A DNA stretch of 62,904 bases, filler included, from Dugesia japonica (Eukaryota): assembly GCA_001938525.1 (NCBI GenBank). It is 4 parts of 4 records of this genome, joined end to end, with 100 filler letters (N's around TTAATTAATTAA, not from the genome) between each part and the next. Parts side by side here need not be neighbours in the genome. Positions count along the whole stretch, not along the records: positions 37,554 to 62,904 come from MQRL01583123.1; 3 more parts are not named here. The stretch is one strand, 5' to 3'. Of this stretch, positions 4,520 through 62,573 are shown piece after piece. The first letter of the stretch is position 1. The number at the start of each line of letters is the position of its first letter. The notes below the pieces were generated by a model. The model was not told the origin of the DNA. It made no database searches and worked only from the letters and a program-made list of their open reading frames with translations. The translations under genes were made by a program, and so were the position numbers.

Positions 4520-7500
4520 AAATTTACAACCTCGTTTAAAAGTTCTAATCTTAAATGCCATGTTTCACATTCAAAACACCAAAATCGATTACCGTGTAGC
4601 CACGTCCTAATTCCATTAATTTCTATCAAAACTTTATCATCATATGCGATCATTGCAATTTTAAATTGAGAAGTTAATTCTATTTCACGACCCTTTGATT
4701 TTAATCTTAGCATCTTCGAAAATTTTATCATAATCTTTCATTTGTATGTCATTGGCTTGGGCTGAGCTTTTATGTCTTTTATGATAATTAATTAAAAGAT
4801 TTACTACATAATTAAAAGCATAACATTTTTCCCTTATAAAATCACCCTGTGTAATTTCAGCGTTTGGCATTTCATCTTTCATTTGAAAGAGTTCGCTGCC
4901 AAATAGTGTTTTCAACTTGTCCAAATTTTCTTGCCCCCTGATTTCTACAAAGAGTGAATCTGTGTCTGTATAGTGAATTTTATAATTTTCCATTCCAATC
5001 ATTGGAGCCATCTGATTATATACAAANTCATACATTACTTCTTTTGCGTATTCCAAAATAGTAAAACCAACAAATGGAAATTTATTATATTTAAGATTGG
5101 TTTTTTGCATGTGCATTGCTGCTGATTTTCTTGAAAATATTTTAAAATATTTAAATGTTGGTTTTGCTGAAATCATTTGAAAGTCTTTATTACACCCAAA
5201 AAATTCTATAACCAGTCTTTTCCTAGTATCTTCAAGAGTCTTTCCATAAAAGGAATTATTTGAAAGTTTGAAAAAGAAATCGAGAAAGCTATTATTATTT
5301 CTTTTGGCTTCATTTCTATTTTCAATGTTAAAAAAATACATGGTCTTAACCATGGGCTTGTTGGCACTTTGGCTTTATAATAAATTTTTTTCAACTTCAT
5401 GCCTAATTCGAGATATAAATCTAAAGTGCTTCCTTGGACTATGTCATTTTTTTTATCGAATTGAGTAAGTACTAATTTTATATTTTCCTTGGAAAGTTTT
5501 TTATTAAATATTTTTTGGTATGGTGTTAACATATTCTTTTGAATATTTAACCTCTCGGGAGCTAGAGGAAAATAACTCGTTTTCTCATGAATCTCCGGAG
5601 GATACTCCAAATCCACCTCATAGAGGAAATTATAGTCGTCGGTTGATTTTTCATATGTTAGTTCTTCACATTCTATGTAATCTCCTGTGGGAAGAGGTCT
5701 TGTCATACAAGCCGGATATAAACTGTTTTGATCCAAATATTTTAAAAATGTTTCTTCAAAATAATCATCTGGAATTTCTTCTCCTCGTTGTATCATGTTT
5801 AAGAGATCTTCTTTTTGTGCTTTGGTTAATCTCTTGATTGGCGTATTTTTATTAAAAAGAAAAATTTGTCTCTCGCCAGTTGCTGCAGAAACTCCACCGC
5901 GACTTCCTCGTTCATTTTTAAACAATAATCAAAACTTTCTAGTTTTGGATATCTTAACTTAACTCCTATAAATTTCATCCCTGCTACCCAAGTAAGTCCT
6001 GGAGCAGAAAAGCAATAACATGGATCGATTTAATAATATTCCATACAAATTTCTCGAAGATTTTCAAAAAGGTCTGCAAGGATTAAAACATCAAGTTTTA
6101 AGTAGAGAAGCATGTAATCCCATAGTATATTATCAAAATTGTCAAAATCTTCGAGAAATTTGTCATATTCTTCGCTGGTTATATTTTTTTGTTTTAGCCT
6201 ATTGTAAAAATCTTCTTTGTGTGGAATTCTTTGATTTTTAAACGTTCCATTGCTTCTGTAATATTGTGTTCCCTTATAAATGCATAAGGAAATTAAATTT
6301 TTTTTGCTTTTAGGTTGTGTTTCTTTAAATGATGAAAATTATCGTTTTCATTTAAAATTTCCCCCATTTTTTCTATGATGTGGTGGTACACATTCTATAT
6401 GAGTCAAGAAACCTAATTTTTTTAAATGAAAAAGAAATGTATTCCTCATCACTATGTGGTATAATTCCTTTTATATCATCTGGGTGTTTTTCTAAGAGCT
6501 CTCGGAAAAATAAGTGATTGTCATAACCAGACGCGTTGTGAAAATAAAATGAAATAAAGAAATTTTTCTTAATGTTTTTATATTTCTTGTTGCAAAATTC
6601 ATGAGCTGGTCCAATAAATTCCCCGCAAAAAAAGTTATAAACTTCTTCTACATTTCCCCAAAGTGTTTTTTTACAGTAAAAACATTCATCTTTTAAAATT
6701 TTAGGTTGTGGTTTAATTAAATTCATCTCAAGAAGCTCATCTAAATGAAAAACATTTAAATTTTCTAGGTATTCTATAAAATCATTTATCACATTTTCAC
6801 CAAATAATTCTTTATACTCTGTTGGAATAAAATCTTCACGTTTGCTTACAAGATAAACCCCGGCGCAAATTAGTTTTTGTTTTTTATCTTCTATGTTGGT
6901 CCATGCCTCAAAATCAGCATAAACCACAAATGGAATTTCTATCATAAAATTAAAATTCCTAAAAACATGAAATTCATTTGACTCATATTTAATTCCTGTT
7001 GGTTTTTGATGAACACATTCCCTTTGATGTTTCTCAAGTCTTTCTTGGGAGGAATATACATTTAAACAATTTACAAACAAATAATTTTTAATTCCTCGGG
7101 GGCTAATAAATGTGTTTAAGTTTTTACATAGGACATAGTGATTTTTATAAAGTAACAAATTACATTTATTTTCGTTTTGTGGTGCTTTACAAAGAAAATG
7201 AGAAACATTAATTGATTCAGGAGTTTTGTTTGCGTTTTTCGCCCCAAAAACATTAATTTGCCAATTATTTAATTTTTCAAACCTTTTTATATCTTCAATT
7301 TTCGCTGGAAAATTTACACCTGTTAAATTAAATTCGTTTAAATGTTTTTTATAGTTTCTTACTCGTGTTGGATGTTCATATGTATATTTATGTGCTAGAA
7401 TTGAATAAAGAAAACATTTATCATCATCGTTTTCAATGTTGACAATTCCTCTTTTAACAAATGGTAATTTTTGATATGTGGCACCCGCATGTGATTTATA

Positions 7501-8224
7501 AATACCAAGTCTTATTTTAAAATTAAGTATATAATCAAGGTTCCAATTACTTTTATTTTTATCACCATTAATTTGTGTTTCGAAATCATTTACTAATTCT
7601 CGGGTGATGTTTGGAATTTCATATCCTACTGTTATTCTTCTAATGGAGGAGTGAGATGTAAAATTTCTTTCTGCTGTAATATTATTTGTAGTATTTGAAT
7701 ATTTTGCATCCACAACAACATCAACGTAAATTCTTCCAAATCTAAAACATTTTCTAATAATAGTTTCAATCTCGTTTTTATAATTAAAAAATCCGATTTT
7801 AAAAATTCAACATCTCTTCTTAAATCAATTCCAGAATCATCAAGATATTTAATAACATAATCTTCATATTCAGGGCCTGTGAATAACTCATCTATTTTTG
7901 GTGGTACTGGTTTTTCTCCTGGAAGTTCATCAAATAAATCAGCTGCAAAATCCTCTTCATTTTTTTGTGTGGTCTTCCCGCATAATGTTTTTTCGCTTTT
8001 TTCTGTTTGGGAAATTTTATTTTACAAATATAACAATATAACCTCACACAAACATTTGAATTTAAATGTTCAATTAGCGCTTCTTCTGATATAAATCTAT
8101 CCTTACATTTTTCACACAGGTTTTTATAATTTTTTTTGCCGCATGTTTTTATGTGGGTTGAAAGACCCGATTTTGTTTTAAATGTTTTATTACAAATGGT
8201 ACATTTATGTGTTACTGCTTCCAT
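4516..8224 (-). pseudogene. Protein-primed family B DNA polymerase (pPolB) with N-terminal C2H2 fingers and vOTU-like domain; multiple frameshifts
   Basis: C2H2 fingers (7892-8224); NIENDDDKCFLYSILA and KNHYVL; exonuclease YADFE, FHNASGYD, RFLDSY; YLDQNSLYP; KLSNNSFYGK; YTDTDS. Confidence 0.95.
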
Positions 8225-53384: not shown

Positions 53385-53664
53385 ATCATATGGCACTTTC
53401 CCCACACCAATATAGAAATACTTACCTTGTTACTTTACATTCCCTCACCTTTGTCTTGTAATAATCTGACTCTTGGTACACAAAATAACTCAGCGACTTT
53501 TGTACTACTTCCAACTTCTCTGGATTTGCTTCTGGACATTCTTCTGCGTCGATTAATGAATACACCGTTTCCCCGATATCCATGTGATCACAATCATAAG
53601 CTCGGATTGCCGCACTTCGGCCCATTAAGAACATTAATATTAACACCATGAAAATGGATTGCAT
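53385..53664 (-). pseudogene. N-terminal fragment of a chuvirus-like (class III) envelope glycoprotein
   Basis: Signal peptide MQSIFMVLILMFLMGRSAA, then IRAYDC...YSLIDAEEC...VYQESDY...VRECKVTR*VFLYWCG. Confidence 0.75.
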
Positions 53665-53889
53665 ACTGCTGGTTCTTGTGCTGCGATTCGTTTCGGTTCC
53701 GTACTCATCGATATAGTCTTTTAATAATGCATGAACCCGTTCGTTTAATTTGTGACTTGAATTAGTTTTTGGTTTCATCCTTTCGATTATCCCATTCGAC
53801 TCTCCGACAGTTACTAATATCAGCTCGATTTGATCATTTTTTATACCGATTATTGGCAGATTACTCAATTGAAATTTCATTCCTGGCCT

Positions 53890-56800
53890 TCAACGAGCTA
53901 CTGCTATTTGCGTTTGCTTTACCAAATATGCAAATGCCACTAGTAATTTTGGAATTGTCAGGCGATTCGACAATACCCTTTGTACTTCTTTTTCCATCTT
54001 TTCTCGATCCTTGAGGAGTGTATGTTTGGCAACTGGTAATTTGGTTATGATTGGTTCTAATATCGCTGCTAATTGTTTGCTTTCCGTAGACAAAATTGTA
54101 TTTCCGATCCATAGTTTTAAATTTGGATACAGCGCTATTAATATCTGATGTACTCGTTTCTTGGTTGGTAGCGTTTGTGGTTCTAATTTCTCCATTATTT
54201 CCGACGATATCTCAGTCATTTTTTCATCTCTTGTTGGCTTTCGTTTTGTTGTAATACTTGCTGTTGCTCCTTTTTGTTGACCTCTGGGCTTTTTATCCAT
54301 CCATGTCTCCGCATCACGCATGACTTGTTGATGGGTTTCATTATCTGTCGTGTCATCTGTGTTATCCGTTGTCGTTTTCACTTCTTCAAACATTGTGGCT
54401 GGTGGTATTATTTCGTCCGCTACTTCATCTAATTTAACTGATATATCATCGTCCTCCATATCCAAATCCGCTTGGTTTGGATTAAATATTTTCGACTTCT
54501 TTGGTTTATTAGTATTTCCGACTCTGACATTGTCGCTGGTTCCATTTGGGTGATCTCGATTTCTTCATCACTCACACTATCTTCAAGATCCAAAATCTGC
54601 TCGATAATCTCATCCTTAGTGGTATTCTCGGTTGTTGACTCCTTGATTGGTGATTTTCTCGGCCGTCCTCTTGATTTGGCAACTACTTCACTCGTATTAC
54701 TTGGTGTCATTGGTTGTACAAATGATTTTATCGATGTCTGACTTGATCCTAATCCGGATTGTAATTTATTTTTAATTTCCTTGGCTAATTTTCGTCTGAT
54801 CAATCGTTTACTACCTTCCGGTTTGATATACATTTTATTTTCTACCTATTGTCGGATATCCAACGTTCCAATGATATCGTTATTCAATAATTCCATATTG
54901 TTTAATAGTAGTACATATGGCAACTCGTATGGTATTTTAGATTCCATTTGCTCTACTGTCTCATATGCCAAATTCGAGATTCTCGTTTCATGACCATCTG
55001 GTTCTACTATTCTGAAGCTAAATCTAAGCGGTAATACTTCATTTTGTTCGCCTTTTCTCCATCTTGATATCAGCAGTTTGAATTGTTTTGGTCTATCCTT
55101 TGCATTCCTCTTTACATCTGGATATTTCATAGGTCAATGATCTCAACTCCTCAATGGACAAATCACTCTGCAATAATTGATCCGCTATATGCTCCACGCT
55201 GGTTTTGTTTATACTTTTTTCTTGAATTTTTGATATAAAGTGGTCTACTATATCGGCAGAATCTCCACTACACTTTTTCGATTTACCGGACATTACCGCC
55301 ACCATTTCTTGTGATCGACTCAACTCTTNNNNNNNNNNNNNNNNNNNNNNNNNNNNNNNNNNNNNNNNNNNNNNNNNNCCGCCACCATTTCTTGTGATCG
55401 ACTCAACTCTTGATTTGATTTGTATTGTCGATGTAATCTCGGTCTCTGCTGTTTTACCGCTATCGTTTCTCGATTTGCTAATTCACTTTCCTCATTATGT
55501 AGTTGCAATCCCCATGGCAACTTTGGATTGATATTATCGACATAATATCGTATTGTCTTTCTACATAAATTCTCTCTAATTGACTTTAATATATATGGGT
55601 TTTTCTCATTTTCTTCACTTGCGAAAACATAAAAATTCATCATATGACCTGGCCATATGCCAAATCTCTTTATTGGATACTCATCGTGATCCTCTGTGAT
55701 CTCTCCTCCACAATAAACTACAACATACTTTCGTTTGGTAATTGGAGTACTCTCTTTTACTCTCGCCGTTTGTTTATTCAAATGTTGGATAATTTTCTTT
55801 ATTAATTTATCCCCACTTGTCGTCGTTTTAATATCGAAATCTTTACTTGATTCATCCGGAAAATGTACGGTTACCTGCACATTTTGTTTTGATATGCTAT
55901 CTGCATGAGTTATCGTTAACGTATGTATAAGCGTGTACAACGCTTTTCCTCCGATCATACACAATTGATTCAATCTGTTTATTATCTCTTGAAGATTCAA
56001 TTCTGTCATTTGACTATAATTCTCGTAAATTGTTAACGCCATTTTTGCCATAGTCTGTTTCAAACTCTTCCACGGTTCACTCTCACTTTCACCATCTGCA
56101 ATCCACCTGATCTCCTCATCAGTGACGATTCTCAAATATTCCATTTTATCTATTTCGTTTACATACACATTTCTCATTTTTGTTCTAATTCGACTAATTA
56201 ACTGTAATTCAAACTTTTTTGGTTTTCCGTCATCTAATTCCAACATTAATTCAGTAATCTCTCCTGGTCTCAATCGGAACTGACTCACATGTTGATCCCC
56301 TTTATTCAACTTGTTCCTTTGTATAATCATATAATCACACATAAGCCGATACTTCTCAAAGGTTTTCTCTAAAGGTAATTTACTCAATATTGCTAGCAAC
56401 TCACCCACTCTGGTGGTTTGAAGTTTCTCAACTATTTTCGTATGCATGGTCATGCACAAATTATCATCCATCGTAGGATAGTGGATTTTTACCCCAAAAT
56501 CTGATCTAACGGTTGTTGCTACGATCATATCTTGATACTCTTTAATTAATTCAGACCAGTTTCTTCGATGATCCAATAATATATCATAATGATAGTGTGC
56601 ATCCCAAACTAAATTCAGCATCATCCAATAAGTTTGTTTCGGAATTAATTCCTTCCTCTCCAATGTGATACCCACGTATTTGTTTATTGCAGCTAAATTA
56701 TGGTAGTAATCATCATTGCGGTCCTCGTTGGCAGTAGTTGATGTTTCACTCGGCTCATTCACACTTCCTTCTCCCACAGTACTTACTTGTTTACCCCCCT

Positions 56801-58050
56801 TTTTACCTCTATTTATTATTTTACTCGAAAAGTATCTCATCATAAAAACTCTGGCTGGTCCTGGCTGCGTTCTAGACAACTGTTCATCATTAACGTCTGT
56901 AATAATTTTAATTAAAACGCTCGGTATTTCAACTTTTGGTAATTCACTTGGCTGGATTGCCAGTGGTGCCCTCTTTTCTGACAACGGCGCGAGATATTTG
57001 ATTTGGCATTTATTCAACGAAATCATTATATTTTCAGTTGTTCTAAAGTAGGAATGAGGCCAAATTAGTTCGTTATATAAACGCATTCTCCGACTCTCCA
57101 ACAACGTAATTACTATAGTAGTTCCAGGTTTTAGACCATATTCATAAATATGGGCGCCTACATCATTGATGCTAACTACTGACACGGGGGTACAAAACAA
57201 TATAATCGCCTATGGGTTTTGCCCACTCAACCTCTTTCAACGCATTGAGTAAATCTTTTACCGTCGTTGCTTTCAGTTTTAACACTCGTGAGATGTTCCA
57301 CTTGGTCGCCACTGGTACTTTCTTTAAAACCTGATCCATCGTAATGTATGCAGTTCTATCTTCATCCGGTCTCCAGGCTTCCATTGCTTTGATTTTATAA
57401 TCCTCCACGGTTGTATTTTCTAACAATTCTTTCTTATACTCAAGAATTATTGGTCTCCACTTTTGATTGGTCAACGTGTCCATATGTCCTGGTTCCGCTA
57501 ATTCAACCAAATTATTCATTAATTTCCAATAAGCCTTTCCGGTTAATTCATCTTTTAATAATTAAGCATCCTTTATGACTGTTTCTACATAATTATACAC
57601 TCTTGTTTTGTTTCGAATTCTCCTCGTTGTCTTTTTCTTTACCGGTGGTTGACATGGTATCAGTATCACTTGATTTCGAACTTGATTCCGAGTATTGTCG
57701 AATTCTACTTGACGCTCGGATTGTAGGTACACTTTTACTAGCTGATTTAGATTCGTAAAAACTTTCTAGATCAAGGTCTTCTACCGAATTGGCTCTTGAG
57801 TGATTTGGTTCGGTTATGGTATCAAATTCTCCTTGTACGTCGTCGTTAGACGGGAATGAATTGGGTGATTTGGATGCTGAAATTGATAGAGATTGGTCGA
57901 ATTTTCGAGACGGCCTGTTGTAGGAGACCGATCGCTTGATTTTAGCTGGATTGAATCGTTTAATTACAAATGATCTTCTATGTTCGGTGCTTTCTCTAAA
58001 ATTATATCGGGATTCTTGATTATCTATGATTGTTTATTTGGTTGATTCGC
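53890..58050 (-). pseudogene. Long upstream polyprotein region: Ser-rich N-terminus, three ubiquitin-like domains, helical region, AT-hook, acidic/Thr-rich linker
   Basis: Consecutive same-strand frames joined by single frameshifts or stops; Ubl patterns at ~57100-57325, ~55620-55880 and ~54820-55022; KSRGRPRKSP. Confidence 0.65.
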
Positions 58051-58500
58051 AGATTGATTGGTTTATCTCGATTTTTGGGATATTGGAATGTTGATTGTTT
58101 TGGTTTCTGAAATTAAATAATATGGCCCTATGGCTTCTGCACGCATTCAAATANNNNNNNNNNNNNNNNNNNNNNNNNNNNNNNNNNNNNNNNNNNNNNN
58201 NNNNNNNNNNNNNNNNNNNNNNNNNNNNNNNNNNNNNNNNATTACCATACTTTATTTCTATCACTTTAGCAGCGTATTTACGTAATTTACTTTTATTACT
58301 CATTCATTTATTATACATAAGTAACAATTTTATTCGATTATGTCTACTGGAAGCCCCACTTCAATATTTATTGTTCTGGGGCAGCTCCACTCAGATTAGT
58401 GATTCCAATTATAATTTATAAAGGTTACAACTTACAATATTCCCATACTGATTTGTCTGGGCATTTTCAGATGTGCCTTTGACATATTACTCCACTAAAC

Positions 58501-58822
58501 AGAACATTTCCGCCTGCTCTTGGCAATTTGTCTTCCGGACAAATTTCGCAAATTTATCAATACTCAACTTATCTCCCTTTCCTTTTCCTTTGGTAGAACA
58601 CTCCAGCCGGTTCCTGTCAATTTAGCTTCCAAATAAATTTTTTACTAATTGACGATTAATTCAATTCGACTCCTTTTCTCACGTTGGGACAATCCCACCT
58701 GCCCCTGGTAGTTTATCCTCCGGATAACTTTTAATATCAATTAACAATTACTTTATTTTAACTCCACTTTCATTTGGAAACCTTTCCGCCTGTTCCTGGC
58801 AGTTTATTCCATTGATAAACCT
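58501..58822. repeat. Four diverged ~45 bp cores at ~91-94 bp period in the element leader
   Basis: Cores start at ~58501, 58595, 58686 and 58777. Confidence 0.75.
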
Positions 58823-60335: not shown

Positions 60336-60646
60336 CTAGATCCTTCGCGGCATTCCCTTCGAAGGCTCATCCACTAGGTTTCGGTACAACAACCACAGTG
60401 CCCTCAAATTGTTGAACACCACGGCCTTTTTATCCGCATAAATTTTGATAATTTCGGACATCAATCGATTGGCTTGCTGCAAGGCCAACTCTTACTCTTT
60501 TAATTGTTGATATTTGCTACTATGCTCGGTAGCCTGGCTTTTCAGTTGCAGCTCTTCATTTCTTAGCGCCCGGCGCTCCTCTTTCCATTTCTTCTGTAGG
60601 GCTAGAATTTCTTTCGATGGAGTCTTATTATCTTTTATCTGATTCA
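60336..60646 (-). pseudogene. Coiled-coil exon-like frame upstream of the PBS (within the putative 5' LTR)
   Basis: tttcAG acceptor followed by NQIKDNKTPSKEILALQKKWKEERRALRNEELQLKSQ...; one internal stop. Confidence 0.35.
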
Positions 60647-61156
60647 CTGAAATAATCAAAATAGTTTATTTTTACATTAATTATTAAACTAAGTAACAGC
60701 TGAATTATAAATCAAGAAATTATTAAATTATTTCAATTATTTACAGCGTTAAATCTTATACTTCTTATTAATGCTAATACTGAAAATAAAAGTCGATTGT
60801 ATACCCCAGTATTATTCAAATAAAATTTTTTTCACGACCACGACTCAATGATGTTTTCCTGATTCGATAAAAAAAATTGTCCGATGGTTACCCCGTCTCC
60901 TCGTCAATAATCATAACCACAGTGAACTCGTGATGTTTCAATATGCTCTAATTTGCGCATGCATTTCTCATCTTCGTTCTTATTTTTGTTTATTTAATTA
61001 ACGAAAACGTTCTATTTAGCTAACAATTAAAAATTAAAATCATTCAAAGATTGCCTCTGCAATCATCGTGACATACATATCACTTTAATTTTTCATACTA
61101 AAAATGCAAACAAAACAAAACAGCAAAACAACTCTCATTTGACAACGCTACACATT

Positions 61157-61552
61157 TTATTTAGTGTTATTNACAGGAGATTTCGGGATGGAACCGCTCA
61201 GGCCCATCAAATCCCGAATAATCGAGACTTCTTCTTCTTCCGCTTGCGACTTCAGGGTATTTTTCTCAGTTGCACCACTCTCTACAGCAGCTCCAGGCAA
61301 TTGGGTCTCTTCAATGACATCTTCCGCATTACTCTCTTCGAGGGTCGTCATCAGTCGATCTCGTTGCGACGTGAGTAGCTTATTATTCGCCTCGAGTATG
61401 GTAACCCGCAAGTTGGCTACCTCGAGATCCGCCCTNNNNNNNNNNNNNNNNNNNNNNNNNNNNNNNNNNNNNNNNNNNNNNNNNNCTACCTCGAGATCCG
61501 CCCTCAAATCATCTGCCTCTTCTTTCCGGGCTATCTTCTCGTCACGGATCAT
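61157..61552 (-). CDS. Coiled-coil ORF (within the putative 5' LTR region)
   Basis: LRADLEVANLRVTILEANNKLLTSQRDRLMTTLEE heptads; GC level like the giant element. Confidence 0.4.
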   Translation of the reverse strand: MIRDEKIARKEEADDLRADLEVXXXXXXXXXXXXXXXXXRADLEVANLRVTILEANNKLLTSQRDRLMTTLEESNAEDVIEETQLPGAAVESGATEKNTLKSQAEEEEVSIIRDLMGLSGSIPKSPXNNTK

Positions 61553-62573
61553 TGTCTGGACCTCCGACCATTCAATATAGTAACAACCGTTAGTGTCGAT
61601 GTATGGCCATATATATAGCGTGGTCTTTTCGAATTTCTTCTGCCTTTTGCCATCTAGTAATTATAATCATATTTATTAATTTACTCTACATACAATAACG
61701 ATTAAAATACAATAAAATTAGATTTTTTGAACCTCCCATGATTTACACGATTTCATCGGCCTACGGCCTATCATCATTTCCCACGTCTCATAACGCGAAC
61801 CAGAGAAGATACCCGCTGGTAATAGGTATCTTTTTTCGTTCCCGCTATCGTTCAATACTGCTGGTTATTCCCTACTCATTAGTAAACAGTTGCATTACGA
61901 TTTATTTTGTACGAAAAATGGATATTAATAATTAAAACACATATGTTGATTAAAAGAAAATAATCACATAAAATAAATAATAATAAATAAATCAATAAGA
62001 ATAATGGATAATGTTTTTAATTATTTATTAAATATTNNNNNNNNNNNNNNNNNNNNNNNNNNNNNNNNNNNNNNNNNNNNNNNNNNTAATAATAAATAAA
62101 TCAATAAGAATAATGGATAATGTTTTTAATTATTTATTAAATATTCATATGACTTTTGACCAAACAAAAAATGATTTTCCCACTCAAAATATAATAAACC
62201 AAACAATAATCCCATCGGGGAATCAGAAAANNNNNNNNNNNNNNNNNNNNNNNTTGAAATCTGACAAAACCTAATTCCGATCTACAATTCTCGGCTTCAC
62301 CTGCACCCCTCCATGCGTGAACGACACCCAGCGAATTCCTCTGAATTCCCGTGATTTCTCAATTCATACTTCTTAAGCCACATTACGAAATTTGTCTCAA
62401 CCTTACATCTTCATCTCATTTTTAAATCAAAAGGATTCTGGTGGCGGCACTCAGACATGATAATTTTATTTCATTTAACAACAAACAAAATTTGATTTTA
62501 ATTTAAAAATACTACAATAAATAAATAAACAAAATTTACTCTGTGGTAGTTGTCGATAAAATGTTCTGGAAGC

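Follow-up and report, generated by a model that had tools for sequence, protein, structure and literature searches.

Does the region ahead of the envelope gene of a planarian Ty3/gypsy element encode ubiquitin-like (Ubl) domains and, if so, how many and for what use? The window analysed is a stretch of 62,904 nucleotides from Dugesia japonica (GCA_001938525.1), composed of four parts joined end to end, of which positions 37,554 to 62,904 come from MQRL01583123.1. Coordinates count along the whole window, and the candidate segments and the frames of the element are read on the minus strand. A first-pass annotation had proposed three Ubl domains here, and all three peptides are found where it placed them on this strand, from 57324 (segment 1), at 55880–55620 (segment 2) and from 55022 (segment 3). 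The features of the locus are collected in Table 1.

Table 1. Features of the element, from the 5' side of the pre-env region to the frames that follow integrase.
Feature	Position	Strand	Remark
Ser-rich open frame, 5' side of the pre-env region	57593..58033	-	No family match
Repeat unit 1: predicted helical part and candidate Ubl (segment 1, 57324-57096)	57096..57555	-	Frameshift at C5 run 57190-57186
Repeat unit 2: helical part and candidate Ubl (56501-56232)	56232..56657	-	26% identity to unit 1 over 149 columns, unit 1 being read through the frameshift with X
Segment 2, candidate Ubl, best supported of the set	about 55620..55883	-	Sub-cutoff Pfam matches, Atlas leads, low-confidence model
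50-N scaffold gap	55329..55378		Both flanks are an exact 33-nt duplicate
Segment 3, pattern only	54810..55025	-	TAG at 54848-54846 ahead of the candidate last strand
Basic/acidic low-complexity stretch, then stretch without family match	53890..54809	-	Weak AT-hook match (E 0.59); interrupted in this copy by a frame change and a stop
Hydrophobic signal-like segment and first ~77-80 residues of gB/chuvirus-type fusion glycoprotein (env)	53400..53664	-	PF24664
Aspartic protease 1	53150-52884	-	Domain scan
Four CCHC zinc knuckles	52805-52576	-	Downstream of env, between the two proteases
65-N gap, then aspartic protease 2	52482-52204 (protease 2)	-	Domain scan
Reverse transcriptase, RNase H, integrase, in Ty3/gypsy order	48968..51556	-	In-frame stops present
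Three frames after integrase: Cys-rich 48837-48007, acidic 47905-47231, hydrophobic 47193-46768	46768..48837	-	No significant family match

The order of protease, reverse transcriptase, RNase H and integrase (PR-RT-RH-IN) is that of Ty3/gypsy elements (Metaviridae), and a glycoprotein of the gB/Monjiviricetes type lies upstream of the protease, which places env before pol. The env fragment matches the Monjiviricetes-type fusion glycoprotein family with an E value of 9.8e-9 over profile positions 4–78 of 653; the remainder of env is missing from this copy. In a tree built from 119 of 120 RT relatives (one was left out because of its short coverage), the element groups with seven of them with a FastTree support of 0.985. 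Among ten relatives scanned, one from the RT clade (P0018) carries a glycoprotein in frame ahead of PR-RT-RH-IN and another (P0017) has two proteases, so that the protease pair of our element is not merely the product of an assembly join. A ubiquitin-family domain is listed in none of the 120 relatives, which are at most 2085 residues long and often cut.

The first-pass annotation had called the candidate Ubl region gag-side. This is appropriate as a description of position, but domain scans of the present copy, which is gapped and truncated, found no gag domain, and between the region and pol lies the env fragment. For the same gapped and truncated copy, no pair of LTRs was found around the element. 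Just upstream of its first frame, at 58503–58805, four 27-nt repeats occur with spacings of 94, 91 and 91 bases, and these are possibly part of the LTR or leader. Two further 50-N gaps (61436–61485 and 62037–62086) are flanked by exact duplicates of 19 and 59 nt; together with the 50-N gap of Table 1, they are scaffold artefacts.

The three frames that follow integrase are unmatched among the 120 relatives. The closest pol relatives (P0014–P0017 and P0019) carry long post-integrase extensions in which signal-like and transmembrane-like segments are seen by eye, with no significant Pfam match. The 3' side of the element adjoins a Polinton/Maverick-like remnant at 44919–46830 (plus strand), and another such remnant is present at 4685–7806 (minus strand); these remnants carry a double jelly-roll domain, a phospholipase A2-like domain and a type B DNA polymerase. 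A further retroelement protease remnant is located at 37999–38442 (plus strand), and a 195-bp element occurs twice in opposite orientation with 97% identity (37554–37748 and 60554–60748).

In the present copy, the pre-env region is spread over three frames: A (57561–57172), B (57209–55320) and C (55133–54846). The interval 52600–58150 belongs to a high-copy family, with 30 of 30 bins covered in each of four runs by 11402 (run X1), 6103, 5158 and 1266 contigs. Individual contigs connect parts of the Ubl region with the pre-env stretch, none of them spanning the whole, and the break near 55.1 kb and the stop before env are not common to most of the contig depth. At the env–protease junction, loose ends on either side indicate that some other copies have a different sequence there. 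The highest hydropathy value over 15 residues is 1.6 upstream of env and 2.2 at the env signal, and a strongly hydrophobic segment is absent before this signal. Given the contig joins and the hydropathy, the region is most likely the cytosolic front of a long precursor extending into env.

Differences to other copies were taken from the best 40 of 541 rows, of which 32 were classed and 8, lying outside the frames used, were dropped. Among these best rows, one of the 15 differences listed for frames A and B is synonymous, and purifying selection is therefore not supported. Four RNA runs contributed 4, 198, 145 and 146 reads on the region; none is 99% alike, so the reads derive from relatives only and at a low level. 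An RNA peak at 55584–55617 was not taken as element expression, since an unrelated transcript matches there over a short length.

Segment 1 is split by a frameshift at its C5 run, as had been noted at first pass. Up to the frameshift, frame A resembles residues 184–295 of frame B (E = 4e-5). When unit 1 is read through the break, its alignment with unit 2 reaches an E value of 1e-7, and none of 2000 shuffles attains the same score. The 31 residues after the break also match the duplicate by themselves (1 of 2000 shuffles is as good). Because the alignment crosses the break and the tail beyond it matches alone, the two halves of segment 1 constitute one domain. Judged from sequence, a unit of about 150 residues, with a predicted helical part followed by a candidate Ubl, is thus present twice, and its second copy provides a fourth segment (56232–56501) as the duplicate of segment 1. 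This segment, the TAG in segment 3 and the glycoprotein gene before pol were all absent from the earlier description.

Segment 1 has no Pfam, PDB or ubiquitin match of its own, and it is solely via its duplicate that it may be read as a Ubl. The ESM Atlas search covered segment 2 and the unit 2 segment, with all scores below 0.9; a score of 0.8 is the level reached by a third of shuffled proteins, and the matches serve as leads only. For the unit 2 segment, seven of the ten rows shown carry β-grasp families, with scores of 0.76–0.79: PI3K_p85B, Kindlin_2_N, Rad60-SLD, ubiquitin, FERM_f0 (20% of members), USP7_C2 and Plexin_RBD. Ranks 1–4 correspond to four different β-grasp family sets; a clan is common to just five of the ten best named matches, which the tool itself reads as 'probably wrong'. 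The aromatic-x-L-x-PG-strand pattern at the end of segment 2 recurs at the ends of units 1 and 2. A β-grasp fold for the duplicated pair is fairly likely, that of segment 1 by way of its duplicate.

Segment 2 is the strongest candidate. Seven Pfam families match it with E < 0.1, all below the cutoff, and four of the seven are β-grasp families: FERM_N (0.0086), PI3K_rbd (0.013), ULD_3 (0.026) and RA_2 (0.038). FERM_N, PI3K_rbd, RA_2 and the families so named in the Atlas lists we take to be β-grasp families. The β-grasp matches span just the first 30–60 residues, and the best match overall is Viral_FcR (E = 0.0031), which is not a β-grasp family. With tighter borders, β-grasp families account for four of six matches. 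Five of the nine Atlas rows shown for this segment carry CLU_N, Rad60-SLD or ubiquitin, at scores of 0.77–0.81; the scores of the whole list are 0.77–0.82, and ranks 1–3 have no family in common. Rad60-SLD (PF11976) is found in the Atlas lists of both segment 2 (0.81) and unit 2 (0.78), and hmmscan gives no match to PF11976 in the candidate segments. Single-sequence folding, there being no homologs to align, produced two models with pLDDT values of 33.7 and 47.5, which is too low for a fold test; at this low confidence, both place the elements of segment 2 in the order strand-strand-helix-strand. The likeness of segment 2 to units 1 and 2 is marginal (101 and 128 of 2000 shuffles are as good). 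Taken together, segment 2 is likely to adopt a β-grasp fold.

Segment 3 had been put in register with ubiquitin, and this does not go beyond chance: against ubiquitins, its score is equalled or exceeded by 1990 of 3233 retroelement tiles and by 272 of 500 shuffles. It runs from 55022 into the TAG, and its candidate last strand lies beyond that stop. It shows no likeness to the other segments (1146–1559 of 2000 shuffles are as good), no Pfam match and no PDB Ubl match. A β-grasp fold for segment 3 is unsupported and appears doubtful. Of the three domains proposed at first pass, segment 2 is thus upheld as likely and segment 1 as fairly likely through its duplicate, but segment 3 is not.

None of the four segments exceeds background in its similarity to ubiquitin. 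The reference was 8 of the 96 distinct ubiquitins that 121 viral loci contain; with the 3233 retroelement tiles as background, 327 tiles score as high as segment 1, 338 as high as unit 2 and 512 as high as segment 2. A Pfam profile search yields the four sub-cutoff β-grasp families of segment 2 but none for the other three segments, with none of the four reaching the Pfam cutoff. Sequence searches of the PDB give no Ubl match, and a profile of the four segments against the PDB is also empty. MAFFT does not bring the helices of the four segments into register. Foldseek with the low-confidence models finds no match at E ≤ 0.001, and the best Z in VIA is 3.7. Matches to staphylokinase and SidD (E 0.24–0.27) were judged to be due to chance. 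No BCL2-like or dUTPase-like domain was detected in domain scans, for which a profile–profile search may be needed.

Homologs of the 608-residue frame are found neither in a word-indexed search nor among metagenome or viral contigs, and the piece comprising the pre-env region and env has no homolog among longer proteins. The pre-env region is likewise unmatched in the 120 RT relatives and 91 integrase loci, many of which are short or N-terminally cut. A search of 1.84 billion cluster representatives likewise yields no relative of the 608-residue frame, so any Ubls here would have diverged strongly. Overall, the sequence evidence for Ubl domains is convergent but weak.

With a probability of roughly 0.5, we regard the locus as a degenerate copy of a Ty3/gypsy element that has env before pol and a high copy number, and the pre-env region of which likely contains at least two to three ubiquitin-fold domains as built-in, non-conjugated modules that bind proteins of the host ubiquitin system. 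Two or three such domains are likely, and possibly there are four. GG is absent after the last strand in all four segments, as the first-pass annotation had stated for its three, and the domains could consequently neither be conjugated nor act as ubiquitin-type cleavage sites in the usual manner; its proposal of integral modules instead of conjugated modifiers would fit. Partners from the host ubiquitin system are putative; the presence of cargo of this kind in related elements is the reason for ranking them first. In working copies, the pre-env region and env would be translated as a single precursor, in which an internal signal peptide would route env into the ER while the upstream part stays in the cytosol. 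Signal peptidase or the protease of the element may release this upstream part, and the Ubl domains could then bind ubiquitin, SUMO or proteasome receptors or act as decoys for them, as proposed for the cargo with which Burro elements would address ubiquitination and apoptosis.

A more far-reaching reading, which we consider tentative, is that three or four divergent Ubls stand in tandem, in an array that would have grown by duplication of the helix and Ubl unit and would form a transposon-encoded scaffold engaging the ubiquitin system of host stem cells, by analogy with the arrays of USP7 and nsp3. It is rather unlikely that segment 2 alone is a true Ubl, corresponding to the one Ubi2/SUMO-like motif published for Burro, with the duplicated unit and segment 3 representing different α/β domains or look-alikes. 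The confinement of Ubl-type Pfam matches to segment 2, the absence of significant similarity between it and units 1 and 2, and the low clan count of unit 2 all agree with this, but the four β-grasp family sets that head the Atlas list of unit 2 and the strand ending that both units share with segment 2 argue against it. In pestiviruses, ubiquitin inserts act as polyprotein cleavage signals, and the location of our segments between polyprotein modules would suit ubiquitin-type signals cut by host deubiquitinases for polyprotein processing; the missing GG and the lack of similarity to ubiquitin proper make this highly improbable.

The main mechanistic rival of modules directed at the host is that the β-grasp domains serve the element itself, as adaptors to nucleocapsid, RNA or the env tail during particle assembly, which would resemble the role of Ubl1 of coronavirus nsp3. 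Integral Ubls are often plain scaffolds, and the gag capsid is not found in the present copy, both of which are in line with such adaptors. A complex of nsp3 Ubl1 with nucleocapsid has also been solved, going by the entry title (PDB entry 7wzo). We nevertheless consider this role unlikely, since the Burro motif, in the accessible text of its description, is accompanied by MATH, BIR and BCL2-like cargo that targets host pathways (PMC6431247). Still less probable is that no segment is a Ubl and that too much has been read into short strand-helix patterns of a long orphan protein. All Pfam and Atlas scores are sub-threshold and the ubiquitin scores are at background level, as this would predict, but two different methods indicate the same fold for segment 2, and Burro, as a related element, is described with a motif of this kind in the corresponding place (PMC6431247, accessible text).

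The reading as modules that bind host ubiquitin-system proteins is preferred. Should the region be an array of several Ubls, segment 2 and unit 2 would be small intact domains open to structural and partner work.

Several GG-less β-grasp domains are found within one large protein in coronavirus nsp3 (Ubl1 and Ubl2) and in the Ubl array of USP7. For neither array has a match in sequence or fold to the present region been established, the one belonging to a different virus class and the other to a different, host protein. In the Anakin elements, a chuvirus glycoprotein has been captured by an LTR element (PMC7642597); they share the glycoprotein family with our element but are BEL/Pao and not Ty3/gypsy, and no Ubl region is seen in the accessible text. 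Troyka (PMC12440569, accessible text) was considered as a comparison and found not to be relevant. Closer are the GAG-ENV-POL Ty3/gypsy 'errantiviruses' of nematodes, bryozoans and flatworms (PMC13524379, accessible text), which also have an env of the HSV/gB type before pol. The env motifs VYQE, YQES and KVREC are confined to the six planarian rows of the env table of that paper, but none of the rows listed is identical to the present env fragment, and the present copy has no gag match. The words ubiquitin, SUMO, Burro and accessory do not occur in its main text as accessible.

The closest known system is Burro (GYPSM1), described in the accessible text of PMC6431247 as giant planarian Ty3/gypsy elements of more than 30 kb with LTRs and high copy number. 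Their polyprotein begins with an N-terminal gag followed by CCHC knuckles; after gag and before pol it includes an in-frame, mononegavirus-like env. The cargo includes MATH, BIR, ankyrin and BCL2-like domains; MATH and BCL-2 flank a Ubi2/SUMO-like motif (PF11976). Interference with host ubiquitination and apoptosis has been proposed. According to a summary in PMC13465017 (accessible text), the RING-BIR cargo of Burro1 protects stem cells of planarians. About half of the Burro polyprotein was left without annotation. Our copy differs in that it has no gag, MATH, BIR, ankyrin or BCL2 match and no LTR pair, and its zinc knuckles lie after env, between the two proteases, instead of after an N-terminal gag. 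Three BURRO1 primers have no match in it at up to three mismatches, which is a weak test. As the gag position and the MATH/BIR/BCL2 cargo are not seen in the present copy, we take the element to work in the manner of Burro without classifying it as such.

Several Ubls or a duplicated helix and Ubl unit in such elements were not found in the literature searched, and Repbase entries or the original Burro studies and supplements may annotate more than one. The first-pass view that Ubls here would be highly unusual is overstated, since a Ubi2/SUMO-like motif ahead of env has been described in Burro (PMC6431247, accessible text). Env ahead of PR-RT-RH-IN and a high copy number are common to both elements, and a motif of this kind ahead of env would be a further likeness; Burro has one named motif in that text, whereas the present element has up to four candidates and a duplicated unit. 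With one motif already published, it is in the number of domains and in this duplication that any novelty may lie, and a multi-Ubl array, if real, would be a new type of cargo that grows by internal duplication.
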